Notes: generated by a model from the letters alone, not told the origin. DNA of 64,000 nucleotides from Granulicella sp. (GCA_003138795.1 PLHC01000062.1:31410-95409), one strand, 5' to 3'. Shown: positions 34,455 to 51,467, counted from the stretch's first letter. A program made the numbers and translations.

Positions 34455-34498
34455 CTCTGACCCCACCCGCAAGATCAAGCCCCCCGTGCAGGGGTTTC

Positions 34499-34831: not shown

Positions 34832-35023
34832 CTAGTAGGCGGTCAGGGAAGCAGTGATGGCGGTGAAGATCGCGCTGATCTCGGTGCCCAGACTCTTCAT
34901 GGCGACGGTCGCCCCCAATGCAATCAGAGCAACAACCAGAGCGTACTCGACCAGATCCTGGCCTTCTTCCTGCGACAATAGGCTCTGAAACTTGGTATAC
35001 AGTCCCTGCAAAGTGTTTTTCAT
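34832..35023 (-). CDS. flp: Flp/Fap family type IVb pilin (copy 2, 63 aa)
   Basis: MKNTLQGLYTKFQSLLSQEEG/QDLVEYALVVALIALGATVAMKSL...; GGGAGA lies 6 nt upstream of ATG 35023. The last 54 nt are identical to copy 1. Confidence 0.88.
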   Translation of the reverse strand: MKNTLQGLYTKFQSLLSQEEGQDLVEYALVVALIALGATVAMKSLGTEISAIFTAITASLTAY

Positions 35024-35078
35024 GTGTTTCTCCCGCGTAAGTTGAAATTCCCCGAAACTCACTGGGGTGCCCTATATC

Positions 35079-35095
35079 AAGCACGTTACGAACCA
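35079..35095 (-). promoter_or_regulatory. sigma-54-type -24/-12 promoter candidate upstream of flp-2
   Basis: Minus strand TGGTTCGTAACGTGCTT has GG-N10-GC spacing exactly as in consensus TGGCAC-N5-TTGCW. The -12 GC lies 58 nt upstream of ATG 35023. This is the weaker match of the three. Confidence 0.45.
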
Positions 35096-35677
35096 TTTCC
35101 AGATCACTTGATCTCGTTATAAATCAGCAGCTTAGGAATAGCGCGGCGCATGACGTGTGAACGACCGTATACAGGACGAGCGAAAGAGGTCTACCTCTCG
35201 TATACATGTTTAGCGAAAGAGCAACAGGCTCGTATCGGGTCAAGAACAGGCCCTGGAGGCAATACTGAGGATGAGGGGTTGCGCGATACAAATCGCATCA
35301 TGCAGAGCAAGACGAGCTTAGCAATGGATTCGCTACTTTATGCGAACAAGGCATGCATGTCGTCGACAGATAGACTCCATGGCCTTGCTACAGAGAAGCA
35401 TGGTCCGAATAATAATTGCGGAAAATGGACTCACTGGCAAAGAAGGCCTCGTAGCCCGATCCACATCCGGCGCGGCTAAATCGGTACAGTCGAATGTAGC
35501 TCCCACCTGGGCCATCAAGTATTTTTCTTAGAGTTCGCTTTTTGTTTATCGATCATCAAGCAATACACCGCGCAACGCGACTGCGACAAATGGCATTAGC
35601 GCTACGCCCTGGCTCCATCGATCTTTGGGCATAGATCGCACTGCTCTTCTACATACGTGTTTGACCCACTCTCGCGG

Positions 35678-36103
35678 TTATATGAAGAACTCAAGATTCA
35701 GACTGTCTCCGGGCCTTGTCTGCGTGTCGCGTATCGTGCCCGAGGCAAGCTCGATCACAGAATGCGCGGAGAGACATACCGACAGCCTCCGTGGAAGCAC
35801 ATCGCTGCGGACTTTTATTATTCGGTGACTGCGGTCCAGATAGACGAGGTCGATTGGGAATTGCATGCCGAAGGTGTGCACGGCTTCACAGGGGAGTATC
35901 CACAGACCTTCGCCAGGAGAAAGCCGCTCGCGCCCCAGCAGACCCTTTCTACGCTTTGCGCCTTTGTCGGCGACTTCCACGTTGCTGGCGAGCAGCGTCT
36001 GGCGAGTGAGGTTCGAGACCCGCAGGCGAGGGTCGGGTCTTGCCCCGCGGTGTTGAGTGAGGCGGTCCAGTAGGTCTAACAATGTCCGGCGCAGCAGATT
36101 CAT
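35678..36103 (-). CDS. DUF192 domain protein (141 aa)
   Basis: VADKGAKRRKGLLGRERLSPGEGLWILPCEAVHTFGMQFPIDLVYLDRSHRIIKV follows the DUF192/COG1430 pattern (A.T...R..GLM.R..L....G..F.....H.FWM..PLD..FLD). ORF trimmed to ATG 36103, downstream of the cpaC stop. Confidence 0.7.
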   Translation of the reverse strand: MNLLRRTLLDLLDRLTQHRGARPDPRLRVSNLTRQTLLASNVEVADKGAKRRKGLLGRERLSPGEGLWILPCEAVHTFGMQFPIDLVYLDRSHRIIKVRSDVLPRRLSVCLSAHSVIELASGTIRDTQTRPGDSLNLEFFI

Positions 36104-36242
36104 CGGGTTAGTCTCAGTCCTTTCAATAGCCCGTTCGTTCAACTGCCCGGTGTCGCAATTTACGCGAACGGCAACTGCGTCTTCACGCTCAGAATGCTTG
36201 CGATCTTCGTTTACCGCATGCTTAAGACACCTGACTAGATAT

Positions 36243-37805
36243 CTACTGGGGCGCGGCTGGAGCGGGGCTGGCAGCCGCCCCTCCCCCGTTGGCACCAAAA
36301 GAGCCTGAAGACGAGCTATCGATCAACAGCGGCTTCTCCGGTTGCATAGCCTTAATTAATTGCTCCACGGGCATCGTTGCCGGTACGGGGGCTGGAAGCG
36401 CGCCAGCCGGTTTCATGTCCGGAGTATTCATGGGTATACCGGAGTTGGGCGGCAGGAACTTTGCCGGATATTTCAAATGAGGCAGGGGTGCGCCTACCGG
36501 TATTGGTTTTACGATTTCCGGTGTCACAATCACTATGAGTTCAGTATTTGTCTTATTTTTCGAGATTGACTGGAAAAACTTGCCAAGAATCGGGATGTCC
36601 CCTAGAAAAGGTATCTTCTGGAAGGTCTCGGTATCCCGATTGTCAAGCAGACCACCGATGGCAAAACTTTGGCCATCAGCCAGTTCGACCTCAGTGTTCA
36701 CTTTCCGGACATCAATGGCGGGGACATCAAATCCTGAGATCTCCACGGCATTAGTGAAGTCCAGCGAACTTACTTCGGGGGCAACCTGGAGGCGGATCGT
36801 TCCGCGGGGAGTAATGGTGGGAATGAAATTCAGGCGAATTCCATACTCTTTAAATTCAATCGTAACTGACGTACCTGTGCCCGAGGATCCCTGAACAACT
36901 GGATACGGATATTCTCCTCCAGCGAGGAAGCTGCCTTCTTTGCCGTTTTGCGCGAGGATGTTGGGCTCAGCAAGAACCTGCACCAGGCCCTTAACCTGTA
37001 ATGCTTGAATAGTTGCGCCCAGATTCAGGCCCGGAAAGAACGCAAGAAGGTTCAGGTCATTCGACAAAGTCGCCACTGCCGTCCCCGAACTGGGAAGGCT
37101 AAGCGTTGGCGGAGAAAACTGTCCCGTTGAAACCCCAGCCACAGTATTTCCCAGACCGGTACTGAAGAGGTTTATGCCGAGCTGATTGCTCAGGCTACGG
37201 TCGACGCTGGCAAAGATGACCTTGAGGAGAATCTGTGGTTCGGCGGGAGGAACTTGGACATCAAGTAGATTGACAACCTTACCCGCCGCTACGGCAGAGA
37301 CAATCTGCACGGCCCGACTCGAGCTGTTGATATCCTTGACTGTGCCGCGGAGGAAGATAGCGCCGCCCTCGGAGCTAACGGTAAGGGTTTGGCCTGGAAG
37401 ATCCTGTCTGAGCTCGCGACGTATCGCCTCCAGGTGGTCATTGTCCGTATAGATGCTAGAGTGAACCGTGACCGCAACAAACTCTCGGACGCCGCCATGT
37501 TCCCAAATGATCAGACTGGTTTCCCCAGGCGCTTTTCCGCTCACCAGAATCTCGGAGGGGCTAATCGCGGTGGCTACGGCGATATCGCCGATGCCGACGG
37601 CGACCCGCTGCACGGGTAAGGCACAGTCGAGCACCACGGATTCGCCCACGACAACCGAGAGTGCCTTCACCGTATCCAGCCTGCGGGAGGGGGCAGATTG
37701 GGAGACAGGCCTTGAAGTCTGAGCAAGCAAAGACGAATCAGCGTAGACACAAAATAATAATGCGCCGTAAAAGGCCCTGACCATAGAAGCTTTGGTTCTT
37801 ATCAT
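36243..37805 (-). CDS. cpaC: Flp pilus secretin CpaC/RcpA
   Basis: 520 aa with a signal peptide, an N-terminal pilus-formation/BON-like region and a C-terminal secretin domain (LAEPNILAQNGKEGSFLAGGEYPYPV..., IPFLGDIPILGKFF). Confidence 0.9.
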   Translation of the reverse strand: MIRTKASMVRAFYGALLFCVYADSSLLAQTSRPVSQSAPSRRLDTVKALSVVVGESVVLDCALPVQRVAVGIGDIAVATAISPSEILVSGKAPGETSLIIWEHGGVREFVAVTVHSSIYTDNDHLEAIRRELRQDLPGQTLTVSSEGGAIFLRGTVKDINSSSRAVQIVSAVAAGKVVNLLDVQVPPAEPQILLKVIFASVDRSLSNQLGINLFSTGLGNTVAGVSTGQFSPPTLSLPSSGTAVATLSNDLNLLAFFPGLNLGATIQALQVKGLVQVLAEPNILAQNGKEGSFLAGGEYPYPVVQGSSGTGTSVTIEFKEYGIRLNFIPTITPRGTIRLQVAPEVSSLDFTNAVEISGFDVPAIDVRKVNTEVELADGQSFAIGGLLDNRDTETFQKIPFLGDIPILGKFFQSISKNKTNTELIVIVTPEIVKPIPVGAPLPHLKYPAKFLPPNSGIPMNTPDMKPAGALPAPVPATMPVEQLIKAMQPEKPLLIDSSSSGSFGANGGGAAASPAPAAPQ

Positions 37806-38653
37806 TCTCCCCCGGGAGCAGTAAATTTTTGTTCGCTTCGCTGTAGTCCGTTGAACACTTCAACCGAATAGAACCGCGGTTCTGTTTTAGTCGCGATTTT
37901 GGAGCCGCCGACAGTAATCAATTTTGGCGCGACTGGTTTGTTATTTGCAAAGAGAGTAGACATGGCGGTTCCCGGAATCTGAACAATCTTTGTATCCAGC
38001 GGGTTGCGCAGCACGAGCTGGAGATGCACCTGATTGCTGGCCAGGCTCAGAACCTCTGCCTGCTCCGGCGATACAAGCAGGTTAACTACCTGAACCTGCT
38101 GCGGCTTGCCTTCCGCGTCCTTTTGAATATCCGTGCCTGCTGAGAGCACCTCTATATTCTGAAGGAGTGTCTTCACTTGAGGCCCGTCACTCGAATTCGG
38201 TTGGCCGGGAGGGTTGCCCGACATCAGCACATCCACACGCATTCCGGGAGTGACGAATCCAGCCACGCCTACGACCTCATCGACCTTGACTGCACAGGCT
38301 CTCATCCCCTGACGAATGGTGGCTGCCAATCCGCCACCGGAGCCGACAGCCGCCAGACGACTATCCACAATGGGTTCGCCTTGATAGAGGTCGGAAATCA
38401 CTCCACGGCCTATCGCGTTCTCAGACTTCAGAATGGCCCCCTTGGGAAGGGGTCCTGCAATCTCGATGGTTGTCAGATTACCAGCATTGAGAATGGTCCC
38501 GAGCTTGATATCCCCAGCAGCCGCAACCACGCGAGTGGTGGCTGCCTGGTGTGTCACCCCCAGGCGGTTGCCAACTACCCGAAAGACGAGATAGGCGCAT
38601 CCGGCGGCAACGACGAAAGCAGAGAGAAGGATGGTCAATACTCTTTGGTTCAT
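37802..38653 (-). CDS. cpaB: Flp pilus assembly protein CpaB/RcpC
   Basis: N-terminal TM, SAF-like domain (VVAAAGDIKLGTILNAGNLT) and RcpC C-terminal region. ATGA overlap with cpaC. Confidence 0.85.
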   Translation of the reverse strand: MNQRVLTILLSAFVVAAGCAYLVFRVVGNRLGVTHQAATTRVVAAAGDIKLGTILNAGNLTTIEIAGPLPKGAILKSENAIGRGVISDLYQGEPIVDSRLAAVGSGGGLAATIRQGMRACAVKVDEVVGVAGFVTPGMRVDVLMSGNPPGQPNSSDGPQVKTLLQNIEVLSAGTDIQKDAEGKPQQVQVVNLLVSPEQAEVLSLASNQVHLQLVLRNPLDTKIVQIPGTAMSTLFANNKPVAPKLITVGGSKIATKTEPRFYSVEVFNGLQRSEQKFTAPGGE

Positions 38654-38705
38654 TCAGAATCCTGTGTGAATGGCTATGGAGACAGTTGAGCTTCTACTCT
38701 GTTGA

Positions 38706-38721
38706 GGCAATTACTCTGCCA
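38706..38721 (-). promoter_or_regulatory. sigma-54-type -24/-12 promoter candidate upstream of cpaB-cpaC
   Basis: Minus strand TGGCAGAGTAATTGCC compared with consensus TGGCAC-N5-TTGCW (GG-N10-GC exact, TTGC present). The -12 GC lies 54 nt upstream of ATG 38653. Confidence 0.6.
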
Positions 38722-38938
38722 AAGGGTTGAGGATCATGGTCACTCTGAATCATAGGTATAGATGGGAACATGCCAAGCAGGTGTAAACAAGTGTATACGA
38801 ACCGTAGGTCCAGTGTAACGGCGAGACACGTTCGGACTCGTGCCACTCCACTGCCGCGGAAACTTTATGGCGAAATCACATCTCACGCAGGCGCACCTGG
38901 TAGGGAAAAAATGCTCACCCGCCGCCTCCTTAAGGTAT

Positions 38939-39151
38939 CTACGTCGTGCCGTCGGGGATCAACCGTGCGACGGTAAAATCCATCGCAATCTCCGTGAAGA
39001 TCTGATTCAGGTTCGTGGTGGGTTGAGAGGCTGATACGCAGGTACTGCTGGACCCGCTTTGGGTGTAATCGGAGAAAAAATACTGCGTAGCGGAGGCGAT
39101 GCCCTCCATCGTCGCGCATGGCGTGAGAGCTGGATTCGTCGCTGCATTACG
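38939..39151 (-). pseudogene. possible C-terminal remnant of a vWA/TadG-type pilus-associated protein
   Basis: Own translation of a stop-to-stop frame: RNAATNPALTPCATMEGIASATQYFFSDYTQSGSSSTCVSASQPTTNLNQIFTEIAMDFTVARLIPDGTT*. The pattern ..CA(T/S)....YF.......L...F..I......RL resembles the tails of vWA-domain Tad proteins. No intact upstream ORF exists. The family call is tentative. Confidence 0.3.
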
Positions 39152-39310
39152 TCAGCCCGATGCAGTTCGAACAAGACTGGACAGAAGCGACGATGAAGAT
39201 CGCCGCCTGAGAGTCCGGGGGGACCGAGGCAGGCGACGAGGATAAATATCTCCTCAAACCGACTGGTTATGGGATACGCATTCTGAGGGCAAGGTCACTC
39301 AAGTTGCCCG

Positions 39311-39781
39311 CTAGTCTTGAATTGTCTCTATCGAGGTGCTGGAGAGAGGAATGGAGGTGGAGAAGAATGGAATATTCAGTTTGAATGAATAACTTACATT
39401 CACCTCAACCTGGCATCCCTGACTGTATTGCGCGCATGTGCTGCCGGCCGCCGTTGTAGTCAGCCAGGTAACCGTAATGTTGCTTGCCGTCAAGTTGAGG
39501 CCGGGGTGCGCCAGGCCCAATTCGTAGTTTTGCACGTCGACCGCCGTAGCCTTGCAGCCATAGCTGCTCACCGACGCGCAGGGACTTGTCCAATTCGAAC
39601 CGCGCACCATGGCATATCGCGTCCCTTGCTGAGCGGCGATCGCGACAAAATTGCCTGCATATATTACCAGACAGAACTCAATGATACCGAAGATCAACGT
39701 GAAGAAGATCGTGGCAGCAAGGGCGAATTCAACTGATTCGGCGCCGTCTTCGTCACAAACGAGGCTCTTCACTCTTCGCAT
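39311..39781 (-). CDS. TadE/TadF-like pseudopilin
   Basis: N-terminal DEDGAESVEFALAATIFFTLIFGIIEF is the TadE-like motif (G-x-x-x-x-E-F followed by a hydrophobic helix). Confidence 0.8.
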   Translation of the reverse strand: MRRVKSLVCDEDGAESVEFALAATIFFTLIFGIIEFCLVIYAGNFVAIAAQQGTRYAMVRGSNWTSPCASVSSYGCKATAVDVQNYELGLAHPGLNLTASNITVTWLTTTAAGSTCAQYSQGCQVEVNVSYSFKLNIPFFSTSIPLSSTSIETIQD

Positions 39782-39940
39782 CTTGATCCTTCAACAAACT
39801 TTCAACAGCGTATATCTATCCCAAAGTGCGTGCAACTAGTACTGTGACCGTGTAATTCTGTACCTTCCCATGTCCCAAAATCGGGACCTGGGGCACTCAA
39901 TTCATGCTTGTCAACATGTCCTAATCACGCGGTTACGGCA

Positions 39941-40414
39941 CTAGTTGCCGCGTACGGTGGCCGTGGCAGACAAAGTTATGGAGCTTGGGATACCCGGCCA
40001 ATGCACCATCGTCGTATAGACTGACGAGGTTGTGACTTGGACCCTATGTACAACATTGCCGCCCCGAGTAGCGTTTACCACGCAGACCGGAGTAGTCGAG
40101 CAGTTTCCATAGTACGAAGTGCCATCGCTGCATTCACAGCCCCATGTTGGCGCCGTCACAGTCAGGTTAGACAAATTCGGAGCGCTTTGCCGGGCCGCCG
40201 CGGTGATGCCAGCCGTAAGGGTGGGGTTTATCGATCCGTATTCCGCTCCAGCATGTGCGGCGTTCTCCACCTCGAGGTCCACATAATACGCGCGGCCAAG
40301 GTCGACGGCCCCAATTACGAGCAGCAATAAAATCGGAGTCACAAGGGCCAACTCGACGAGGGCTGCGCCATGATTGGCTTTGCAGAGGACGCAGAGACGC
40401 GCTAGAAATTTCAT
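39941..40414 (-). CDS. TadE/TadF-like pseudopilin
   Basis: N-terminal NHGAALVELALVTPILLLLVIGAVDLGRAYY matches the TadE-like motif. Confidence 0.8.
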   Translation of the reverse strand: MKFLARLCVLCKANHGAALVELALVTPILLLLVIGAVDLGRAYYVDLEVENAAHAGAEYGSINPTLTAGITAAARQSAPNLSNLTVTAPTWGCECSDGTSYYGNCSTTPVCVVNATRGGNVVHRVQVTTSSVYTTMVHWPGIPSSITLSATATVRGN

Positions 40415-40417
40415 CGA

Positions 40418-41734
40418 CTACTCCGCCAGTGCTATGGTTGCTGAACCGTTGGCCGCACCGCTGCCGCCAGGGCAAACTCCACCCGGCATTGAGGAGCAAC
40501 TAAGGGATATGGCTGAGTTCAGCATAAGTGATTGCGACTCAACCATACCGTAGGCGACTGCAGTGCTGCCGCCATTCAGCGTAAGCTGCGCGTCGGGAAG
40601 GTAGATTGCCCCCTTCCAACTCGAACTGGAGGACGAATCCAGGATCATCGAACTGGAATCGGTTGTAGCCTGCCAGATCAACATCCCAGCGGTAGTACCT
40701 GTCGCAGGTGCGGACAGAGTCATAGTTGAGGCGCTATTCATAGTTAGCGACCCATTCGCAAAATAGATGGTCACGTTAGATCCAGTGAGGTTCACGCCAC
40801 CAACGACCATGCTGCCGCCAAAGTAGTACAAGCCAGAGGCAAGGGTTACGGTGTAGCCGCTCGAGTTGAAATTGAGGCCGCTCGAATAGTAACCAGGCTG
40901 CAACGTTGTGGCGCCCCCGACTGGATTACAGCAGGTGGATGAAGTGGCCGGTTGGGTGGGCTTAGTAATGGTGCCGGCTGTAATTTCGGCGGCGATGGGG
41001 TCAGGTACCACCGCAGCGCCTGTTGTGGGCGTGGGAGTATAAGATCCACCGTTATCCGTGACGGTTCCGTGAACAGTATAGGAGCCGACGTTCACTGTGG
41101 CGCCGCTGTCCTCCATCACTGCGGGTGTCCCATTCGAGTCGACGTTGACGCCGCAAGTGGAACCCGAGGCATCCGTTATGCTGGCACCCGAGTTAAGCGT
41201 CAAGGTTTGGCCGGAAGTCCCCGTGACATTCAAGCAGGGGCTGGCCGCGCTTGATTTACCGGCTTCCGCCCGGGCAGAGATTTGGACTGTGCTTACGCCG
41301 AAGATTTTCGCAAAGAAAGTTGGTTTCTGCTCAGTAACCAAAGCTTCCACGTAATTTTTATTCAGGTTATTCGGATCGCTGGCGCCCAGCGCGCAGGGGC
41401 CGTTGTTGATCGTCAGGAGCAGGCCCGTCCCGGACGCCGCCGCGCATTGCAGGAATAGGGTAGGCGCTGGGCTCCCGCCCTCCGTCAACGCCGTAGTCGC
41501 GGCGGTTTGTATCACGGCGCAGTTGGGCGTCCCGCATGCGCTGGCCTCCAGCGCTCCCGCCATTGCTGCGGCATCGGCAAACGTCTGCAACTGGCGCTGT
41601 GTGCAGAAGAGATTGCCTATATCGATAACAATTGCCAAAAATGAAAGCAGCATTGTCACACTCAGCGCTGCCAGTACGAGTATATTCCCGCGCTCGTCTC
41701 TCAGCAATCCTCTCAGCATTCTCATCGTTTCCAT
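40418..41734 (-). CDS. TadG-like pilus assembly protein (Thr/Ser/Gly-rich beta-rich C-terminal region)
   Basis: N-terminal LRDERGNILVLAALSVTMLLSFLAIVIDIGNLFCTQRQLQTFADAAAMAGA is the TadG-type (putative Flp pilus-assembly TadE/G-like) motif. The start is uncertain (41734, 41725, 41719 or 41815). Confidence 0.75.
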   Translation of the reverse strand: METMRMLRGLLRDERGNILVLAALSVTMLLSFLAIVIDIGNLFCTQRQLQTFADAAAMAGALEASACGTPNCAVIQTAATTALTEGGSPAPTLFLQCAAASGTGLLLTINNGPCALGASDPNNLNKNYVEALVTEQKPTFFAKIFGVSTVQISARAEAGKSSAASPCLNVTGTSGQTLTLNSGASITDASGSTCGVNVDSNGTPAVMEDSGATVNVGSYTVHGTVTDNGGSYTPTPTTGAAVVPDPIAAEITAGTITKPTQPATSSTCCNPVGGATTLQPGYYSSGLNFNSSGYTVTLASGLYYFGGSMVVGGVNLTGSNVTIYFANGSLTMNSASTMTLSAPATGTTAGMLIWQATTDSSSMILDSSSSSSWKGAIYLPDAQLTLNGGSTAVAYGMVESQSLMLNSAISLSCSSMPGGVCPGGSGAANGSATIALAE

Positions 41735-42222
41735 CCTCACCCGATTGACCGTGTCCTCACAGCTCAGCACTCCAGGCCTTGCCCGGAGATCCAATAGGCT
41801 ATCCGCAGCACCCATCCGGCATGAGTCTTACCACCTGAGCTTACACAAGGCCATTTAGAAACCGCTGAGAATTTCGCGAACCGATTCTCAGGAGTCACCC
41901 AAATGGTGAGTATTGGCAATCTCACCATCGGCCATTTGCAAAACATTTTCAATTTGCATCCGGGTGGGAGGGAGTGGCCTATCCAGTCGGTGAGCCAGCT
42001 TCAGATCGCTGCCTTTAAAGCCCAAGAAATGAGATTGTCGGAGAGTTTGGTGTCTGAACGCCTCCAGAGACACCTGTTTGGCCTCCGAGTGCTGCTTTGC
42101 TTAACCCGGTTTTCCGTACCACTGCGCCTCAAACCCCGGAATCGCCCCAGGTGGCTCGCATACAGACCGCCACTCAGCAGCTTCTACAGAACTTTACGGA
42201 CTCAATCTAGATTATCCTCGCC

Positions 42223-43065: not shown

Positions 43066-43393
43066 TCGTCTTCTCCCCTAGGCAAGAACCCGACAACCGC
43101 GTGTTATCGTAAAGTTCTACTCTCCGATCAAATTTTCAAGTCTGTTCGCTTCATGTATTTTCTATCTCTGAGGCCAGCCGACTACGAATAAACTCCGCTT
43201 CGTCTGGAGTAAAGGAAGCAACTGTACCAACCAGTGAGCTAGGCCAGACCACACTTCATCTGCGCCTGCCCGCCTGACGATATCTGGGAGACACACGCCG
43301 TAAAAACGGCGGGTGTCTCGGCCAGCAGAACCAAGGTTGGCAAGCGAGCTCGGTAGTTTCCTGGCCTCACCAATCCTTGGCATTGCACGCATG

Positions 43394-43489
43394 CTATTTC
43401 ACGCGTGTGCGACGACGCTGAATCATAATGCCTAGTACGACAACGAACAGTACGCCGGCGATAATGCGGACAATCAAGTCATTTGCCAT
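43394..43489 (-). CDS. possible 31-aa small membrane protein
   Basis: Own translation: MANDLIVRIIAGVLFVVVLGIMIQRRRTRVK*. GGAGA lies 6 nt upstream of the ATG, 17 nt downstream of the tadC stop. It has one TM helix and a basic tail. It is below the ORF-track size cutoff. Confidence 0.35.
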   Translation of the reverse strand: MANDLIVRIIAGVLFVVVLGIMIQRRRTRVK

Positions 43490-43506
43490 ATGAAATCTCC
43501 TTTCTT

Positions 43507-44418
43507 TCAATGTGTGGTGAAATTTTTGAACGACTCAGACATGAGTATGAACGCAGGACCCAGTGTTACAAGAAAAAGGCAGGGGAAGATAAACAATACA
43601 AGTGGGAAGATCAATTTTATGGTGGTCTTCGCCGCCTGTTCCTCCACTGCCTGAACGCGCTGGGTTCTGAGTGTCTCGGAATGAGTGCGTAAAATCTTGG
43701 CGACGCTCGTTCCAAACTTTTCCGATTGCACCACCATGGAAACGAGGGTGCGCACAGTATCCACGTCGGTGCGTTCCGCCAGGTGTCTCCAGGCATCGGA
43801 ACGAGGGCGCCCGGCGCGTTGCTCCAGCACGACGACACCGAATTCATCGCTGATAGCTGGCTGGGCGCTGCTTAATTCCTGGGCCGCGCGCGCCATTGCT
43901 TGGTCTAGGCCCAGTCCCGCCTCGATGCAGATAATTAGCAGATCGAGCATGTCTGGCAAACCGAGCCGAATACGTGTTTGCCGGGCAGCAATCTTCCTCC
44001 CCATCCAGAAATCCGGCGCCAGATATCCGACGCCCAGAGCTGCGGCATAGACAATGAAAGGACTTTCGCTCGCGAGACCGCTGCACAGAACCGCGATACA
44101 GAGCGCAACCGGAACTAATACCTTCATGCCGTAGAAGACTTTGACGGCGGAGTCCGTGCGATAGCCAGCACGGATAAGACGCTGTTGCGCAACGGAGACT
44201 TCCGCCTGTGTCTTCGGCACGACGCGCTCGAATTGCTCCACCATGACGCCCAGCGAAGAACCAGTCTTTTGCAGGGTATCGGACAGGCTTCCCCGTTTCG
44301 TGCGCTGCGTGATCGCACGGGAGATCTGCTTGAGCATAGCTTCGCGATAGAACAGGAGTAGTCCGCCGCTCGCGATCAACAGAAATATGACACCAAATGC
44401 AAAGATCGCAAATCCCAT
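43507..44418 (-). CDS. tadC: Flp pilus assembly inner-membrane protein TadC (T2SS F family)
   Basis: 303 aa with an N-terminal TM, a cytoplasmic T2SSF domain (GLPDMLDLLIICIEAGLGLDQAM) and C-terminal TMs. Confidence 0.85.
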   Translation of the reverse strand: MGFAIFAFGVIFLLIASGGLLLFYREAMLKQISRAITQRTKRGSLSDTLQKTGSSLGVMVEQFERVVPKTQAEVSVAQQRLIRAGYRTDSAVKVFYGMKVLVPVALCIAVLCSGLASESPFIVYAAALGVGYLAPDFWMGRKIAARQTRIRLGLPDMLDLLIICIEAGLGLDQAMARAAQELSSAQPAISDEFGVVVLEQRAGRPRSDAWRHLAERTDVDTVRTLVSMVVQSEKFGTSVAKILRTHSETLRTQRVQAVEEQAAKTTIKLIFPLVLFIFPCLFLVTLGPAFILMSESFKNFTTH

Positions 44419-44427
44419 AGGTCTCCT

Positions 44428-45399
44428 TCAAACTTCCAGGTGAACGATCTTTTGAATGACTAAAGTACCAACTACCAGCATGCACCCAGCTCCACACAGT
44501 AGCTTGATGCCAATCGCGGTCTTCCACAAAAGGCTCATTGTATCGGGGTTGACGATATATAGGCCGATTCCGAGCGCCACGGGAAGAATCGTGAGTATCC
44601 ACCCTGTGAGGCGTCCTTGAGCGGTGTGGACCATGACCTGCCGCTTCAGGCGGAATCGTTGTCGGGTCACATAAGCAGTCTTTTCGAGGACCTCCGCAAG
44701 GTTTCCTCCGCTCTCCCTTTGAATCAGAATCGCCGTCACGGCGATTCTCAGATCCTGTAGTGGAACCCTGGTGATCATGTTTTCCAGGGCTGTGCGCAGT
44801 TCAAGGCCGAAGTTCTGCTCGTCGGAGCAAATGCGGAATTCGCAACCGATGGGGTCGGCGCACTCGCGAGTCACCAACCCTAATGCGGCGCTGAAACTGT
44901 GTCCGACTCGGAGGGCGCTTACCATCAGATCAAGAGCATCCGGCAACCCCTCTTCAAACTTACCGAAGCGTCGACTGCGCTGGAAGCGCACATATCCATA
45001 GGGCAACAATCCCAGGATTAACCCGCCCAGCAAACCACAGAGGAAGGACCCGGTTTGCAGGTCGATCAGATATGCCGGGAGCGCGAAGCAGGCGGCGCAC
45101 ATGAGAAGCAGCGCACCCACGGTCCATTTGAGATTGGCCTGATTCAGCAAGCTCTGCAGCTTCGGCACCAGATCGATCTTCAAAAGTCTGTGATTGATCC
45201 AGGGTATGGCGCTGAGCAGTTCACTCTTGCGGAAATCGACAATCGGAGCGCGCGGTTTCGGGCTGTCGGAAGCCAGAGCCGAATCGAACGTGGCGAGCAC
45301 TTGCTTGTTGTGCCCAGCGGCCGCGGACCCGCTCGCGACAAGCAGCAAAGCTACAACGGTGAAGACTCCGACGAACACCAGGACTATGAGCAATACCAT
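44428..45399 (-). CDS. tadB: Flp pilus assembly inner-membrane protein TadB (T2SS F family)
   Basis: 323 aa with a T2SSF domain (GLPDALDLMVSALRVGHSFSAAL). Paired with tadC, as in tad loci. Confidence 0.85.
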   Translation of the reverse strand: MVLLIVLVFVGVFTVVALLLVASGSAAAGHNKQVLATFDSALASDSPKPRAPIVDFRKSELLSAIPWINHRLLKIDLVPKLQSLLNQANLKWTVGALLLMCAACFALPAYLIDLQTGSFLCGLLGGLILGLLPYGYVRFQRSRRFGKFEEGLPDALDLMVSALRVGHSFSAALGLVTRECADPIGCEFRICSDEQNFGLELRTALENMITRVPLQDLRIAVTAILIQRESGGNLAEVLEKTAYVTRQRFRLKRQVMVHTAQGRLTGWILTILPVALGIGLYIVNPDTMSLLWKTAIGIKLLCGAGCMLVVGTLVIQKIVHLEV

Positions 45400-45420
45400 T
45401 TCTTCTAGCCCTCTACCTGC

Positions 45421-46701
45421 TCAATTAACTTCCAACGAGGTTTCGAACACGTTCTGCGGGAGGAAGATACCCGCGAGTTGGAGGCGTTCGAGGAACCTGG
45501 GACGGATGTGGCTCGGCGCGAATACGCCAACTACCTTGCCGTCGGGTCCGATCCCCTTCTTATTAAATGTGAAGATCTCCTGCATGCTGATGATGCTTTC
45601 TTCCATGCCGGTGATCTCGGTGATGCTCACGACCTTGCGGCTGCCGTCGCTCATACGAGAGATTTGGACGACCAAGCTGAGAGCTGAGGCGATCTGCTGA
45701 CGAACTGCCTTTTCTGTCAGATTCAAACTGCTCATCGCGACCATCGATTCGAGTCTCGCGAGGGCATCGCGCGGTGTGTTTGCATGAATCGTAGCCATCG
45801 AACCTTCGTGACCGGTATTCATGGCCTGAAGCATGTCGAACGCTTCTTCTCCACGTACTTCACCTAAAATAATGCGATCTGGGCGCATTCGGAGGCAGTT
45901 GATAAGCAGTTGACGCTGGCGGATCGCCCCTTGCCCTTCGATGTTGGGCGGGCGGGTTTCGAGGCGCACGATATTTTCCTGCGCGAGCTGCAGTTCGGCC
46001 GCGTCTTCAATGGTGATGACACGTTCATTTTGCGGAATATTCCGTGACAGGATGTTCAGTAACGTAGTTTTGCCGGCGCCGGTGCCACCGGAAATCAAAA
46101 TGCTGAGCCGCGCGCGCGCTGCGGCTGATAGCACTTCCATCATTTCCACCGAAAGACTCTTCAGCTCTACCAGTTGGTTAGCAGCTATAGGGCCTGTACC
46201 AAAGCGACGGATAGACAAGGAAGGACCATCAAGCGCCAGCGGTGGAATGATGGCATTGACACGTGAACCATCGGGCAGGCGAGCATCGACCATCGGCGAG
46301 GCCTCATCGACTCTGCGGCCGACGCGCGACACAATGCGGTCGATGATCTGCAACAGGTGACGATCATCGCGAAATACTGTATCGACCCTCTGCAGCCTTC
46401 CGGCACGCTCAACAAACACTTTATCTTTGCCATTTACTAGAATGTCTGAAATTGTAGGGTCCTTCAGCAATGGCTCCAGCGGACCAAGGCCAAAGACTTC
46501 GTCGAGCAAGTCGGCCTGAATCTGTTCCTGCTCGTCAAAACTCAGCGGTACTCCCTGGTTGTTGATAATCTCGCTAACGATGCCAGCCACCACTTGGCGT
46601 GCGTCGCTGGAGTTGACACGCGACAACTTCTCCAAATCCAGCTTCGAGATCAGGGTCCGATGTACTTCGGATTTGTACTTCTCCAGATTCAGCACTTCCA
46701 C
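45421..46701 (-). CDS. cpaF: Flp pilus assembly ATPase CpaF/TadA
   Basis: T2SS E-type ATPase with Walker [15 protein letters not shown], Asp box, Walker B ([12 protein letters not shown]) and His box ([11 protein letters not shown]). Confidence 0.93.
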
Positions 46702-46733
46702 TGCTACACCATCCGTAAAAACTGAACTCTCAA

Positions 46734-47951
46734 CTAAAATAATCCAAACCGCTTCTTTTTTTCAGGATGTGCCGATAGGCCACATGCCGTTCTAGCCATC
46801 TGTAAGATCACCCGTGAGATGGCCGAGTCATTCAGCGCAAGCGGGGTGGCTGTGCTCTGCGTCCCCCGGGCAGTGGCGGAATCGTTGGGAATTCTCCACT
46901 GCGCCGGCCTGGTGAGCGCCTTCGTAATCTGTCCTTCATCAACGCCCAGCGAGGAAGGTATATATCGGTTGACAACGATCTCGAGTTTGGTAGGATCTGC
47001 CGTAAAGAATTCTGAAATTAGGCGATTTGAGTTACGCAGTTCGGGAATACCCACCTGGGTGACCAGGTAGAACATGGCATCTTCTTTGAAGAGAGACGTA
47101 CCGGCTATATCGAGTCTTGATCCCGAATCGACCACCACAAAGTCGAAGTCCTGCCGCGCGACGGCCAGCAGTTTATCAATGGCGTCCTTAGAAGCCTGGA
47201 CGTTAGTGAATTTCCCTGGAGCTGTGAGCACAGATAACCCTGAGCTATATTTGACGACCAACATGGAGAGAAAAGTCGAATCCAGTCGGTTGAAATTCTG
47301 AAGAGCATCGACTGTCGAGTATTGAGCGCTGATCCCAAGACTAAGCGCAATGTCACCGAGTGGCAGATCGAGATCGATCAACAGCGTTTTCTTACCGGAT
47401 TCCCGGGCAAGCAATATCGCAAAGTTGCAGGCGAGAGTCGTGACCCCGGAGCCGCCCTTAGCGCCAAAAAATACAAACAGCCTGCCACCCGTATTTTTAG
47501 TGGCTAGAACTGCTGGACGGCGGGCCGAGGCCCGAACCAGAGCCTCGTCTATGGCTCCAGAGGAGAAGGGTTGCAGAAATTCCCGAGCGCCCGCCCGCAT
47601 GCAACGGATCATTAATTCAGGATCGCCCTGCGCCGAATAGACCATCACCGTTGCAGAGCTTTTGCCGCATATGCTCTCCACCAGATCGAGAGCGTATTCC
47701 GGATTAGTGTCCAGGTCGATGATGACGACGTCGTAATTCTGCTCAATCAACCTTGGCACATCGTCGAGTTCGGGATAGGAAGAAAACTCCCGGGTGAGGC
47801 CAGACAGCGGTCCGGCAAGGGCAGCGGCTACCGCCTTGCGCCGCTGCGTATCCGGACCAATCAGCGCAATGGATAAGGCATTCGAGCCCATCGCATCGAG
47901 ATTCTGAATACTTGATATCACGGAATCGATACTCCCTGCTGCTTGCAACAT
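46734..47951 (-). CDS. cpaE: CpaE/TadZ pilus-localisation ATPase (receiver-like N-domain plus MinD/ParA-type ATPase)
   Basis: Atypical receiver-like N-terminus ([13 protein letters not shown]..., [25 protein letters not shown]) and deviant Walker [15 protein letters not shown]. Confidence 0.85.
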
Positions 47952-48015
47952 TCCTTCGGATTAACCTCAAATAAATAGATCGCGTTTGGACCAGGCATAG
48001 TGTGTATTCTTGTCG

Positions 48016-48537
48016 TCAACGAGAAAAGAAGGAAAGCAGTGTTCCAATCGCGATGGCCGGAGCGTATGGCATTTTGCGCGTGAGTGGATTGGCTAGAACC
48101 AACTCCGGATGAGGACGCATTCCCCGCTGCTTCAAACCGAAGAGGAGTTCGCCCGACCCCTTAAACAAGTCTCCAAGAAATCCACCGCACAGACCCCAGC
48201 ACAGAGCCATAACACCCCCGGCAAGACCGGTGATAACCAGTGCAAGTAGCAATTGAGCCGGGCCGATCCAAGCACCTATAGCCGCGCACAACTTCACGTC
48301 ACCCATGCCCATGCCGCCCATCCAGAAGAGAATTCCAAAAAACAGGGTGCCAAGTCCCAGACCGCCAAGACTTTGGCCGATCCCATGCCAGCCATGAAGC
48401 CAGCCGGAGACTGCAACCCCCGCGAGCATAAATGGGAGCACTAGCCAATTCGGGATACGGCGGCTGCGCAGATCCGTGAAGATCGCCACAGCGAGAACAA
48501 TGAGAGTTGGCCACCAGGCGATCGAATGCATACCCAT
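48016..48537 (-). CDS. cpaA: prepilin peptidase CpaA/TadV (A24 family, no methyltransferase domain)
   Basis: 173 aa, polytopic. FTDLRSRRIPNWLV and GMGMGDVKL carry the two catalytic Asp regions of A24 peptidases. Confidence 0.85.
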   Translation of the reverse strand: MGMHSIAWWPTLIVLAVAIFTDLRSRRIPNWLVLPFMLAGVAVSGWLHGWHGIGQSLGGLGLGTLFFGILFWMGGMGMGDVKLCAAIGAWIGPAQLLLALVITGLAGGVMALCWGLCGGFLGDLFKGSGELLFGLKQRGMRPHPELVLANPLTRKMPYAPAIAIGTLLSFFSR

Positions 48538-48555
48538 GCTCCTTCCTCCAGCGAT

Positions 48556-48723
48556 TCAGAAAATATTTATATGAAAGCAAGAACGAGCTACGCCCCTCGC
48601 GAGTAGAAATGGGGGCACCAGCCAGTTCGGAATGAAGTGGTCGCGAGTATCCGCTAAGATTGGCGCAGAGATAGCCGTCGCAGCAGCGCCCCTGAGGACT
48701 TGCCGCCAGATGATCGACTGCAT
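48556..48723 (-). pseudogene. truncated cpaA-like N-terminal fragment (55 codons)
   Basis: Own translation: MQSIIWRQVLRGAAATAISAPILADTRDHFIPNWLVPPFLLARGVARSCFHINIF*. It aligns with the CpaA N-terminus (MHSIAWWPTLIVLAVAIFTDLRSRRIPNWLVLPFMLAGVAVSG). AAGGAG lies upstream of the ATG. Confidence 0.5.
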
Positions 48724-48767
48724 GCTGAGACTCCTTTCCCTCCCAATTCGGTTAATAATTAGGTAAA

Positions 48768-48783
48768 AGCAATCCTGGGGCCA
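48768..48783 (-). promoter_or_regulatory. sigma-54-type -24/-12 promoter candidate at the head of the cpaA-cpaE-cpaF-tadBC unit
   Basis: Minus strand TGGCCCCAGGATTGCT compared with consensus TGGCAC-N5-TTGCW (GG-N10-GC exact, TTGCT). The -12 GC lies 47 nt upstream of ATG 48723. Confidence 0.6.
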
Positions 48784-48943
48784 ACTCGCCGAAGGCTAGG
48801 AATGCCTGAATTCAGCGATTTAGGGGTCTGCCGTCGAGGCCGGTGTGCACGGATGTTTACTATCATAATCACCCAGTGATGCTGCGTATACACCCTGATA
48901 GGATAATCACGGAGCGCGAGGGAGCAGAAGCACTGACAGAATT

Positions 48944-49177
48944 TCAAATGGACGAGTGACAAACTGGTGGCCTGCCATATAGATGCAGCGATGAAGGACT
49001 GTCCCGAGACAGCATGTTTTCCAGTAGCCAAAGGAAGAGCAAGCCCCGGCGGCGTGAATGACCGCGATTGAAGCGGAAGGCAAATTCATCGAGATATGCG
49101 TCCCGATGCTCCGCAGTAATCGGCCCCTGATAGGCACCGAAGAACCAGCGCTTGAGGAGTGAAGCAACGCTATGCGC
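48944..49177 (-). pseudogene. IS1595-family transposase, C-terminal fragment
   Basis: Own translation: AHSVASLLKRWFFGAYQGPITAEHRDAYLDEFAFRFNRGHSRRRGLLFLWLLENMLS... matches the IS1595/ISXO2-like tail pattern (LKRW..G..HG.....HL..YLDEF.FRFNRR....RG.LF). Confidence 0.6.
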
Positions 49178-49259
49178 CTAGGCATGGAGACGCGTGATGG
49201 GTCTTCTGTACGAGGCCGTGACCGCATCCTCCGGCTTCAGATCAGAAGTCGAGCTCTCC

Positions 49260-49297
49260 GTGATGGGAAAGCTGCTTGGTGATGGGAAAGCTGCTTG
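49260..49297. repeat. exact 19-bp tandem duplication
   Basis: GTGATGGGAAAGCTGCTTG occurs twice in tandem inside the IS remnant patch. Confidence 0.9.
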
Positions 49298-49299
49298 GC

Positions 49300-49420
49300 C
49301 ATCACAGCAATTTAGTCGGGTGCGTTCGGAATCACCAAGGAACCGCACAGGGCCATTCCTGCCCTCCTCCGCGATGCTGATGGAAATGGTCTCCTTGTGA
49401 ACGTTCATGCCGATGAACGA
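49300..49420 (-). pseudogene. IS110-family transposase, N-terminal fragment
   Basis: ORF 49178..49732(-) contains SFIGMNVHKETISISIAEEGRNGPVRFLG, the characteristic IS110 (DEDD) N-terminus (.IG.DVHK.T.......). There is no continuation of the domain. Confidence 0.5.
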
Positions 49421-49484
49421 TCTGGTCTGTATACGTCTTCTCCACCTCCGAACAGGAACGCTGAAAGCGGAGTTCTCGGCTCTA

Positions 49485-49870
49485 GAAAAGCCATACATGC
49501 TTTGGCGACAATACTGCGATGGCGATCGCAACGATGAACTTGCTGCTCGCGCCATGCCCGCGAACGCCCTGCTCGATGCCGCCCACATACGTCTCGTCGA
49601 CTTCGACCGAACCGTGGAGACGATTCCGCCCTGGCCGCACCATGGCCGCGCGCAACTTCCGCAACATGGGCCAGGCAGTTTGATAACTTCCCAGTCCCAA
49701 CAACCGCTGCAGCCCGAGCGCGCGTACCCCATGCTTTTGGTCAGCTATGTACCAGCCCGCGGCAAACCATTCCTGGAGGAGGATACGGCTGTGATCGCCA
49801 CCTTCCAGCGTACGGAGGAAAACGGTCCCCGAAAATAGCGAATCAGTTAATGATTGCTGTATTGAGGCAA
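49485..49870 (-). pseudogene. IS1595-family transposase, N-terminal/middle fragment
   Basis: ORF 49482..49922(-): SGTVFLRTLEGGDHSRILLQEWFAAGWYIADQKHGVRALGLQRLLGLGSYQTAWPMLRKLRAAMVRPGRNRLHGSVEVDETYVGG is the typical IS1595 segment. The zinc-ribbon N-terminus and the DDE core are missing. Confidence 0.6.
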
Positions 49871-49982
49871 CCAATGCATAAGCACAATAGGTATTAGTAC
49901 TTAAGTGTATACAGATGATCACCGACGATTGTACGAATGTATGCTACCTTTGCTTTGCAAATCAAAGAAAGCAGGTTCCTAG

Positions 49983-51404
49983 ATGATCCGCGTCGGTCTC
50001 TATTCGCAGGATTGCACGTTGCAGCCGCTTCTTGCTTCTGCATTGGGTAAGGAATTCCAGTTTTTCTTCGTCTCAGATGAGACCGGAATCAATCGCCTGC
50101 TCTCTACCGGAAATTGCAATGTCATGATTTTCGATCTGAACTCAAATCATGCTTCATTGCAGGAGGGTATTGAATGCGCCCGGCGCATGACCACATCACA
50201 GGTTTCCAGCGTGATCATGGCTGATGATCGCCTTCGGTCGACCGCTGCCGAACTTGTTCGGCAAGGCGCCTACGGCTACTGCCATAGACCACCCTCCATT
50301 CGCGATCTAAGGATTATGCTGCGCCGGGCGAACGAGAACTCTTCGCTCAAGCAGCCACTCGACGCCACACCGCAACTGCCGGAGAGCACAAGCGATTGCG
50401 ACCGGATGGTCGGGGCCAGCCCCCAGATGCAGCACGTTTATTATCTGGTACGTTCTGTAGCGAATATTAATGCACCCGTGCTTGTGACCGGAGAAAGTGG
50501 CACGGGTAAAGAACTAGTCGCCCGCGCCATCCACAGCCTAGGTGCGCGCTCCAATTTTCCCTTTGTCGCTATTGCCTGTGGAGCAATCCCTGAAACTCTG
50601 ATTGAGGCCGAGTTGTTCGGGCATGAAAAGGGCGCGTTCACAGGCACAGTTGGGTCACGCGAAGGTTACTTCGAGCAGGCAGGTGATGGCTCGCTTTTCC
50701 TCGATGAGATCGGAGATCTAAGCCTATATACGCAGGTCAAACTTCTGCGCGTTCTGCAGCAGCGCGAATTCAGCCGACTGGGCAGTAACAGGCTTATCCC
50801 ATTGCGGGCGCGCGTGATTTTCGCCACGCATAAGAACCTAGCTGAAATGGTGGCCCAGGGGACATTCCGTCAGGATCTTTATTACCGCATCAACGTCATG
50901 GGGGTTGAAGTACCGCCCCTCCAAGAGCATTCCGAAGATATTCCTCAGATTGCCACGCATTTCCTGCGGCACTATTCGCAGATGTATCAAAAGCCGATGC
51001 AGGATATTGAGCCAGATGCTCTGGCCATGCTCCAAAGATATCCCTGGCCCGGAAATGTACGCGAACTGGAAAATGTGATTCAGAGGGCGATCATCCTCGC
51101 CCAGGGAGACATACTTCAGGTGGAAGATTTGCCCCTGAATATACAGGACGAACTTATAGCCAGCATCGACGACGGCCTGCCTATAGGTTCTTTCGAACGA
51201 CAACTTCGCGACTATAAGATCAGACTGGCCGCAACAGCCATTCGGGAGAACAATGGGAACAAGACGCTGGCCGCCCGCAGTTTGTGCATTTCGCGGGCTT
51301 ATTTGCATCGGTTGATCCGACCTGAGGTAGACCCAACATTGACACTGGTGGCGAATTCAGAATTTGAGGAATCAGCCTTGGGCTGCGGGACATTCTCGGG
51401 GTGA
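49983..51404 (+). CDS. sigma-54-dependent transcriptional activator (receiver-like N-domain, AAA+ sigma-54 interaction domain, Fis-type HTH)
   Basis: Walker A VTGESGTGKELVARAIH, GAFTGT loop (EKGAFTGT), Walker B SLFLDEIGDL, ESELFGHE-type ELFGHE, and C-terminal HTH NKTLAARSLCISRAYLHRLI. Confidence 0.9.
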   Translation: MIRVGLYSQDCTLQPLLASALGKEFQFFFVSDETGINRLLSTGNCNVMIFDLNSNHASLQEGIECARRMTTSQVSSVIMADDRLRSTAAELVRQGAYGYCHRPPSIRDLRIMLRRANENSSLKQPLDATPQLPESTSDCDRMVGASPQMQHVYYLVRSVANINAPVLVTGESGTGKELVARAIHSLGARSNFPFVAIACGAIPETLIEAELFGHEKGAFTGTVGSREGYFEQAGDGSLFLDEIGDLSLYTQVKLLRVLQQREFSRLGSNRLIPLRARVIFATHKNLAEMVAQGTFRQDLYYRINVMGVEVPPLQEHSEDIPQIATHFLRHYSQMYQKPMQDIEPDALAMLQRYPWPGNVRELENVIQRAIILAQGDILQVEDLPLNIQDELIASIDDGLPIGSFERQLRDYKIRLAATAIRENNGNKTLAARSLCISRAYLHRLIRPEVDPTLTLVANSEFEESALGCGTFSG

Positions 51405-51467
51405 AATCATCGGCGGAAGTGTTGAAGATTAAGCCATTCCGGGTTCTGGCAAAAAGGTAGGCTGAGC

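Follow-up and report, generated by a model that had tools for sequence, protein, structure and literature searches.

The 64,000-nt stretch of Granulicella sp. DNA analyzed here (GCA_003138795.1 PLHC01000062.1:31410-95409; hereafter, the window) contains a gene locus for a Tad (Flp) pilus; the source is an Acidobacteriaceae bacterium of peat or permafrost soil. The question that this locus raises is whether its genes are transcribed by RNA polymerase containing sigma-54 under the control of an enhancer-binding protein (EBP) encoded beside them, as the original prediction held. Our analysis suggests that three Tad units are very probably under sigma-54/EBP control and most likely served by the neighboring activator. 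This reading was supported by conserved -24/-12 sites, the synteny of the EBP gene, the fixed geometry of an enhancer and a site resembling that of integration host factor (IHF), position weight matrices (PWMs) built from relatives only, and the specificity of the module in metagenomes.

Sigma-54-type promoters upstream of three tad units

The consensus scored was TGGCAC-N5-TTGCW (11 positions), with GG and GC exactly 10 nt apart, and transcription starts were predicted 12 nt past the GC. The three minus-strand motifs that had been reported were present at their positions, and the GG-N10-GC spacing was intact in each of them.

48768..48783, minus strand: -24/-12 promoter of the cpaA unit, TGGCCCCAGGATTGCT; 10 of 11 consensus positions; predicted start at about 48757
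38706..38721, minus strand: -24/-12 promoter of cpaB-cpaC-DUF192, TGGCAGAGTAATTGCC; 9 of 11 positions; predicted start at about 38695
35080..35095 (with the following T, to 35079), minus strand: -24/-12 promoter of flp2-flp1, TGGTTCGTAACGTGCT; 8 of 11 positions; predicted start at about 35069

The start-codon ATGs behind these promoters are located at 48723, 38653, and 35023, and their distances of 44, 52, and 56 nt from the end of the 16-mer agree with the 47, 54, and 58 nt obtained earlier by counting from the GC of the -12 element. The cpaA site was the only site in the window with no more than one consensus mismatch, and the cpaB site had two. The earlier observation that tadG-tadE-tadE and the DUF192-PilZ gene lack such a motif also held for the window, and in promoter and enhancer scans of the window, DUF192-PilZ, tadG, and the EBP gene were all without an upstream sigma-54 or enhancer module.

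For comparison, we used 23 loci of Acidobacteriaceae (Terracidiphilus, Granulicella, and metagenome-assembled genomes), one genome per species, collected by a TadB search at 55-90% identity. The tad gene order was conserved in the 23 relatives. A -24/-12 element with 8-11 of 11 matches was found upstream of cpaA in 21 of 21 loci, located about 40 nt before cpaA itself or, in the subclade of the window, about 40 nt before the small open reading frame (ORF) that precedes it. For flp, 9 of 9 loci had an element 55-68 nt ahead of the first gene, and for cpaB, approximately 10 of 15 loci had one 41-54 nt before the gene; where the cpaB element is missing, the tadG/tadE region preceding cpaB is much larger. 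The flp sites orthologous to the weak one of the window have the perfect sequence TGGCACGGnAGTTGCA, matching 11 of 11 positions, in loci L006, L007, and L011, and the weak variant is kept in the closest relatives, L003 and L009, and in L008. No conserved element was found before DUF192-PilZ or tadG in the aligned loci of the relatives, and the alignment of the spacer between tadC and DUF192-PilZ revealed no deep promoter motif.

The aligned upstream regions contained a 19-bp enhancer, tGTAAAC-N4-GTKCACAC, which forms an imperfect TGT-N12-ACA dyad. Measured from the T of the TGG, its first base was 76-82 nt upstream in 36 of the 40 promoters, with all three classes represented, and 69-93 nt upstream in 38 of the 40. 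The enhancer positions that were not used in its discovery were likewise conserved. Most promoters had a second, looser copy, TGTNNAC-N6-7-CAC, 30-34 bp further upstream (about 31 bp, or about three helical turns). Scoring of this distal copy with the PWM of the proximal one failed; its half-site spacing differs by 1-2 nt from that of the proximal copy, and it is therefore described by the TGTNNAC half-site only. TGTATAC occurred 13 times in the window versus 1.3 times expected, largely because of the enhancer copies.

Between the enhancer and the promoter, we found an IHF-like match in the form of the reverse complement of the consensus (YAA-N4-TTGATW; WATCAANNNNTTR). The best match had no more than two mismatches in 29 promoters, and in 26 of these it was located at -39 to -41; a match with at most one mismatch was present in 15 of 40 promoters, compared with 2% of shuffles. 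The flp promoters held the best matches, five of nine being perfect. The corresponding sites in the window are as follows.

48810..48822, minus strand: cpaA IHF-like site, TAAATCGCTGAAT; 2 mismatches
48843..48861, minus strand: cpaA proximal enhancer (upstream activating sequence), AGTAAACATCCGTGCACAC; starts 78 nt upstream of the TGG; top match in the window
48874..48892, minus strand: cpaA distal degenerate enhancer copy, TGTATACGCAGCATCACTG; 31 bp upstream of the proximal one
38748..38760, minus strand: cpaB IHF-like site, TATACCTATGATT; overlaps the -10 of a non-conserved sigma-70-like match
38781..38799, minus strand: cpaB proximal enhancer, CGTATACACTTGTTTACAC; 78 nt upstream of the TGG; rank 3 in the window
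38810..38828, minus strand: cpaB distal enhancer-like copy, TGTCTCGCCGTTACACTGG; the relatives have TGTCAAC-N5-CTACACA there
35122..35134, minus strand: flp IHF-like site, TAAGCTGCTGATT; 1 mismatch
35155..35173, minus strand: flp proximal enhancer, TGTATACGGTCGTTCACAC; 78 nt upstream of the TGG; rank 2 in the window
35188..35206, minus strand: flp distal enhancer-like copy, TGTATACGAGAGGTAGACC

Relative to the predicted start, the center of the enhancer is near -95 and that of the bend near -58, with the distal copy near -127. Such a layout is the textbook geometry of enhancer-dependent promoters, with the binding of IHF put forward on the basis of the consensus match. A weak enhancer-like match (11.7 bits) containing the palindrome TGTATACA was also noted at 49906-49924 on the plus strand, 60-77 nt before the EBP start codon.

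Non-circular PWMs, built from the relatives alone, were run over both strands of the window (128 kb) and gave the following scores.

cpaA: promoter 17.1 bits, enhancer 26.9 bits, composite 44.0 bits
cpaB: promoter 20.0 bits, enhancer 21.0 bits, composite 41.0 bits
flp: promoter 6.9 bits, enhancer 25.9 bits, composite 32.8 bits
Next best in the window: promoter 10.6 bits, enhancer 14.2 bits; composite of the next independent site 16.2 bits

With the promoter matrix, the cpaB site ranked first and the cpaA site second in the 128 kb, and the three sites of the window were the first, second, and third composite matches. In 420 kb of sequence from the relatives, enhancer matches of at least 15 bits were found almost only at tad promoters. 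Four of these matches were outside the training set (two in L019 and one each in L022 and L025), and each had a GG-N10-GC 78-91 nt downstream.

A search of metagenomes with the exact pattern GTAAAC-N4-GTKCACAC, a 57-65-nt gap, and TGG-N8-TTGC yielded at least 119 loci. Among the matches listed, tad genes were located downstream in 107 of the 117 evaluable loci, the first downstream gene being cpaA or mini-cpaA (the small preceding ORF described below) in 66, cpaB in 28, flp in 11, tadG in 2 (with the module 163 nt ahead), and something else in 10; the contig was too short to tell in 2. Since tad genes follow most of these listed matches, the module is close to a private Tad signature in Acidobacteriaceae.

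RNA from peat and permafrost gave further information on the predicted starts. Metatranscriptomes from these habitats contained about one-third of the words of the flp kilobase, and flp RNA was abundant in situ. Contigs from eight metatranscriptomes covered 34499-35058, comprising flp1, flp2, and the leader, and nothing in 35059-35159; the RNA thus ended at or below 35058, within 11 nt of the predicted start at 35069. Upstream of flp, no signal was found in seven of the eight runs, and a low-depth piece was found in one. A single contig (34603-35022) spanned flp1 and flp2. For the cpaA unit, an X4 contig (48375-48740) joined mini-cpaA to cpaA and ended 17 nt inside the predicted start at 48757, and for cpaB, another X4 contig ended at 38679, compared with the predicted start at 38695. 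Taken with the longer cpaB contigs described below, the contig ends are consistent with the predicted starts for flp and cpaA and mixed for cpaB.

The neighboring activator

The activator gene and the sequence that separates it from the cpaA enhancer are as follows.

49983..51404, plus strand: NtrC-family sigma-54 EBP (Sigma54_activat, PF00158, E=5e-68)
48907..49732: inserted decayed mobile-element sequence between the EBP gene and the cpaA enhancer, about 900 bp, absent in L009/L003

The EBP gene was the divergent neighbor of cpaA in 20 of the 20 relatives covering that side, and the activator protein was found unchanged in many peat and wood metagenomes. Alignment of 21 EBP orthologues extended from end to end, with a highly conserved AAA+ core. 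The closest solved relatives in the Protein Data Bank were ZraR and Aquifex NtrC1 and NtrC4, with ZraR and NtrC1 at E=1e-86, and the NCBIfam matches of the EBP were all below the family cut-offs. The protein had been described as a complete activator, and this was borne out for the Walker A (GESGTGKE) and Walker B (LFLDEIG) motifs and the sigma-54 contact loop, GAFTGT. This loop was found in most of the 21 orthologues and reads GAYTGT or GAFTGS in a few. According to a table in PMC4641369, last-residue variants of the GAFTGA loop occur in working EBPs.

The Fis-type helix-turn-helix (HTH) matched Pfam HTH_8 only weakly (E=0.008; 16.3 bits, with the cut-off at 22 bits), yet the segment, NGNKTLAARSLxISRAYLHRLIR, is nearly invariant in the 21 orthologues, and full-length AtoC/NtrC4 models align to it. 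The near-invariance of the HTH parallels the invariance of the enhancer core. At the other end of the protein, the N-terminal 120 residues align with the receivers of AtoC, NtrC, and NtrC1, with a weak match to Pfam Response_reg (E=0.047). Asp51 is kept, and in all EBP orthologues the conserved Thr is replaced by Ala and the conserved Lys by Arg. No kinase gene adjoined the EBP gene in the window or in the relatives.

The insertion sequence (IS) debris that had been placed between the EBP gene and the tad locus is indeed an insertion relative to L009 and L003, homology with which begins at the cpaA distal enhancer copy. Its identity as a transposase remnant was less clear: a 184-aa ORF (49178-49732) had weak similarity to IS110 transposases (E=3e-5 to 5e-4, tblastn), and Pfam gave no match for the inserted ORFs. 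In the relatives, the cpaA enhancer is located 150-500 nt from the EBP start, and in the window the insertion has separated the two. Autoregulation of the EBP is possible.

In the proposed mechanism, mini-cpaA-cpaA-cpaE-cpaF-tadB-tadC-31aa (the last being an ORF for a 31-aa peptide), cpaB-cpaC-DUF192, and flp2-flp1 would each be transcribed from a sigma-54 promoter. The NtrC-family activator would bind the enhancers through its Fis-type HTH and then assemble into an ATPase ring, and the bend introduced by IHF would bring this ring to the closed complex of the sigma-54 holoenzyme. The activator would thereby open all three promoters together, so that the pilin, the secretin, and the assembly platform would be switched on as a unit.

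Alternative explanations and known systems

Several points weigh against sigma-54/EBP control. First, the bare motif was at chance density: TGG-N9-TGC occurred 61 times in the window versus 46.7 +/- 6.4 expected, the consensus with up to two mismatches occurred 35 times versus 34.9 expected, and 88 GG-N10-GC sites in the window, the flp site among them, matched at least 8 of 11 positions. The background of such matches was 0.74 per kb per strand, which corresponds to a chance of 0.03 for a given 40-nt window. Because the count of the bare motif is at chance, the case rests on its position and conservation before the same genes, and in these respects it is more than chance. Second, the relatives share ancestry, and the counts of loci are therefore non-independent trials. 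Third, neither rpoN nor ihf genes were found in the 64-kb window. The intact EBP implies the presence of rpoN in the genome, and in the supplement of PMC3162934, Francke et al. list Acidobacterium capsulatum as having rpoN and 6 EBPs. Fourth, with its atypical receiver, the activator could be constitutive or otherwise controlled. Fifth, because of the insertion, the EBP gene of the window is some 0.9 kb away from the enhancer, and the EBP's own promoter may have been replaced by the inserted sequence. Sixth, the RNA data are unstranded, assembled metatranscriptome contigs, which may include DNA and whose ends are not mapped 5' ends, and at cpaB, two of the three contigs, from X3 and X5, ended at 38772 and 38769, about 75 nt above the predicted start, and extended through the promoter as far as the enhancer's edge. 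Finally, the -12 element of flp reads GTGC instead of TTGC, and this site has the lowest promoter score of the three.

The extent of these cpaB contigs was noted separately. In two independent runs they have nearly equal ends (38498-38772 and 38496-38769) and cover the -24/-12 element and the IHF-like site of cpaB, with nothing beyond on either side. They could mark a separate RNA species or an additional start, or they could stem from the assembly.

The weakness of the flp site, at 6.9 bits versus 17-20 bits for cpaA and cpaB, raises the alternative that only the cpaA and cpaB units are sigma-54-dependent here and that the flp site is a decayed relic, with flp transcribed from another promoter. 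We consider this quite unlikely, because the weak variant is conserved in L003, L009, and L008, and because the flp promoter has the second-best enhancer of the window and an IHF-like site with a single mismatch at the exact offsets. Moreover, the abundant flp RNA ends near the predicted start, with nothing further upstream in nearly all runs.

Alternatively, the promoters might be sigma-54-dependent while the 19-bp element is bound by another EBP or factor, and the adjacent EBP regulates, for example, the gene for a GT87 glycosyltransferase. Acidobacteria encode several to many EBPs, the pairing of this EBP with the enhancer is predicted from sequence context, the insertion separates the two in the window, and in the window, L003, and L009, the GT87 gene comes next after the EBP gene. 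However, a GT87 match directly downstream of the EBP gene was found among the relatives only in L003 and L009, whereas the EBP gene adjoins cpaA in all 20 species. In addition, the enhancer is located in the intergenic region shared by the EBP gene and cpaA, the recognition helix region (ISRAYLHRLIR) and the enhancer core are both nearly invariant, and the composite module is almost exclusive to tad genes among the matches listed. These observations make regulation by another EBP very unlikely.

It is highly improbable that the GG-N10-GC matches are due to chance, with the tad units transcribed from housekeeping (sigma-70-type) promoters and the upstream blocks serving as operators of another regulator: the chance-level motif counts in the window, a sigma-70-like TTGGCA-16-TATGAT at 38776-38749 before cpaB, and the X3 and X5 contigs that cover the cpaB -24/-12 element would agree with it, but the sigma-70-like sequence is not conserved among the relatives, TGG and TTGC at their exact spacing are invariant over the 40 promoters with the enhancer upstream at its fixed distance, and in every species the locus encodes a single DNA-binding regulator, the sigma-54 activator. 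Since the cpaB contigs begin upstream of the sigma-70-like -10, they provide no support for a sigma-70 promoter. The search for sigma-70-like promoters in the locus as a whole returned 9 matches versus 9.2 expected, that is, chance level.

Control of the three units by sigma-54 and the neighboring EBP has a counterpart in Desulfovibrio vulgaris, where DVU2114, a sigma-54 response regulator, binds upstream of Flp-type pilin genes, which are followed by cpaA-F/tad genes (PMC3333781; PMC4641369). Both cases combine an NtrC-family activator, sigma-54 promoters, and Flp-type pilin genes beside cpaA-F/tad genes, and the DVU2114 binding motif is conserved in a few related species, which is a further likeness to the regulon described here. 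However, DVU2114 belongs to another phylum and is a canonical two-component regulator, whereas the EBP described here has an atypical receiver and no adjacent kinase gene. The Desulfovibrio targets are pilin genes and one assembly operon, whereas three units, including those for the secretin and the ATPase platform, each have a full module here. The two regulators are likened here by their role and their target genes.

In type IVa pili, PilS-PilR and RpoN control pilA in Pseudomonas aeruginosa, Myxococcus xanthus, and Geobacter sulfurreducens. As with PilR, a pilin gene is preceded here by a -24/-12 promoter, with an NtrC-family EBP predicted to act at upstream repeats. In contrast, the PilR system has an adjacent PilS kinase gene and usually the pilin gene alone as its direct target; here, assembly genes are included. 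The present regulon is thus not a PilS-PilR type IVa regulon: the EBP gene has no kinase gene beside it in the window or the relatives, and the targets are Tad genes. As sigma-54 control of pili is already known from PilR and DVU2114, the regulon extends a known theme.

The classical promoters that combine an enhancer, IHF, and sigma-54 are those of nifH with NifA (TGT-N10-ACA), glnHp2 with NtrC, and Pu with XylR. They share with the promoters described here tandem dyad enhancers about 100-130 nt upstream, an IHF bend in between, and GG-N10-GC at -24/-12. The TGT-N12-ACA enhancer is similar to the NifA type, although the regulon, the enhancer sequence, and the spacing differ from those of the classical cases.

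Other Tad systems are also under dedicated control: PprA-PprB controls the flp-tad-rcp locus of P. aeruginosa, and CtrA controls pilA/cpa in Caulobacter. In these systems, as in the one proposed here, a dedicated regulator near or acting on several tad units coordinates the pilin and the machinery. PprB (cited in PMC3333781) and CtrA are activators of the sigma-70 type, and neither is known to have an AAA+ domain or to act at -24/-12 promoters, in contrast to the regulon described here.

In the supplement of PMC3162934, Francke et al. place a Solibacter prepilin peptidase gene in the neighborhood of an EBP gene. Our search of the literature on sigma-54 control of Tad in Acidobacteria found no description of this regulon, enhancer, or EBP subfamily, and papers on Burkholderia, Ralstonia, and Vibrio that name both sigma-54 and Tad drew no link between them. 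Acidobacteriaceae are among the most abundant bacteria of acidic soils and peat; their gene regulation is almost unstudied, and few strains are genetically tractable. Conceptually, the present results add no new mechanism; they carry the known regulation of pili and the cell exterior by sigma-54 into a new phylum and to the Tad machinery as a whole. They provide a defined activator, enhancer, bending site, and three promoters as testable targets for studying the timing of surface attachment, and a sequence signature that finds the same switch across metagenome loci. The expression of flp in peat and permafrost metatranscriptomes suggests that the switch is in use in nature.

Further features of the locus

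The gene calls made earlier for the tad locus were correct according to Pfam. The minus strand carries a full Tad/Flp (type IVc) gene set, comprising pilins, the CpaA/TadV peptidase, CpaB, CpaC, CpaE, CpaF, TadB, TadC, TadE-like pseudopilins, and TadG.

34480-34494, of the minus-strand unit: terminator-like hairpin behind flp1
34499-34690, minus strand: flp1 (Flp_Fap match below the Pfam cut-off)
34832-35023, minus strand: flp2 (Flp_Fap match below the Pfam cut-off)
35678 to about 36103 (ORF open to 36298), minus strand: DUF192, last gene of the cpaB unit (Pfam; tblastn matches start near residue 60)
36243-37805, minus strand: cpaC/rcpA secretin (Pfam)
37802-38653, minus strand: cpaB/rcpC (Pfam)
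39311-39781, minus strand: tadE (Pfam)
39941-40414, minus strand: tadE (Pfam)
40418-41815, minus strand: tadG (Pfam)
42223-43065, minus strand: DUF192-PilZ fusion (Pfam); PilZ is a cyclic di-GMP receptor domain
43288..43319, minus strand: stem-loop closing the cpaA unit; position conserved in relatives, sequence different
43394..43489, minus strand: 31-aa single-helix ORF MANDLIVRIIAGVLFVVVLGIMIQRRRTRVK, last gene of the cpaA unit, directly behind tadC
43507-44418, minus strand: tadC (Pfam)
44428-45399, minus strand: tadB (Pfam)
45421-46701, minus strand: cpaF/tadA (Pfam)
46734-47951, minus strand: cpaE/tadZ (Pfam)
48016-48537, minus strand: cpaA (Pfam)
48556..48723, minus strand: mini-CpaA ORF (earlier called cpaA'), 55 aa, like the first two CpaA helices

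The two Flp proteins scored 25.8 and 23.4 bits with Flp_Fap, compared with a gathering score of 32.2 bits in Pfam, and carry a G/xxxxEY-type motif, EEGQDLVEY. The C-terminal halves of flp1 and flp2 are nearly identical. One metatranscriptome contig joined 34831 back to 34499, and this junction is most likely an assembly loop through the flp repeat. DUF192 occurs twice in the locus, in the PilZ fusion and in the stand-alone gene that closes the cpaB unit. The DUF192-PilZ gene is located between tadC and tadG in all relatives and forms its own transcription unit without a sigma-54 module.

The small ORF earlier labeled cpaA' resembles the CpaA N-terminus and is without the catalytic TDLRSRRIPNW motif with its Asp, but it is not a simple fragment, as the ORF is conserved in related lineages: it was present with 54-55 aa at the same place in 10 of 11 subclade genomes and with 47 aa in L003, and its dN/dS (ratio of nonsynonymous to synonymous substitution rates) was 0.06-0.1 between close pairs. 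Its sequence in the window and L009/L003 has changed much more rapidly than that of its neighbors, and the ORF may be decaying there. The cpaA unit had been delimited as cpaA' to tadC. These genes belong to it, but the unit was incomplete, as it also includes the 31-aa ORF, which was exposed, together with the hairpin, by the alignment of the spacer between tadC and DUF192-PilZ. This ORF and its Shine-Dalgarno sequence were conserved in 11 of 11 aligned relatives; the ORF is called as a gene in L001 and duplicated in L007/L011. An X3 contig (43281-43660) over the end of tadC stopped just past the conserved hairpin. The terminator scan of the locus gave matches at chance level.

Some metagenome matches precede features other than tad genes. 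In L056, L074, L082, L087, L115, and L132, the full module is followed, about 100 nt past the pattern, by about 95 nt of conserved non-coding sequence that contains two hairpins, with a run of T residues behind the second; the five sequences so far show no compensatory covariation. Rfam gave no match for this stretch, and the six short contigs contained no tad gene or EBP. From its sequence, it is a candidate sigma-54/EBP-dependent small RNA. In L109, L111, and L118, a module with an flp-type promoter sequence is located 170-200 nt before an 80-aa acyl-carrier-protein-like ORF, which is only a fragment in L111, where the module follows two tadE genes. This ORF may be an extra regulon member in some lineages. 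We tentatively propose, giving it somewhat less than even weight, that the enhancer, the IHF-like site, and the -24/-12 element define a dedicated regulon across uncultured Acidobacteriaceae, with an EBP whose receiver domain is degenerate and that is perhaps phosphorylation-independent, and that this regulon includes the RNA of about 95 nt, a 54-aa CpaA-derived membrane peptide, and the 31-aa peptide.

Mobile elements have left sequence both around and within the locus. An intact IS3-type pair (HTH_Tnp_1 and rve) is located at 33054-34207 on the minus strand, right behind flp1. A piece of about 37 nt between tadE and the cpaB enhancer (39142-39178, plus strand) reads as the C-terminus of an IS3-type transposase, judging from its sequence, and attracts chimeric metatranscriptome contigs. 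The locus is flanked by chromosomal housekeeping genes such as lpxD, ileS, aroA, lgt, and recJ, and its position is conserved among the relatives of the family. The G+C content was 52-57% over the tad locus (34000-52000) versus 58-63% in both flanks. The sole Rfam match in the window was a tRNA gene at 58136-58209 on the minus strand.

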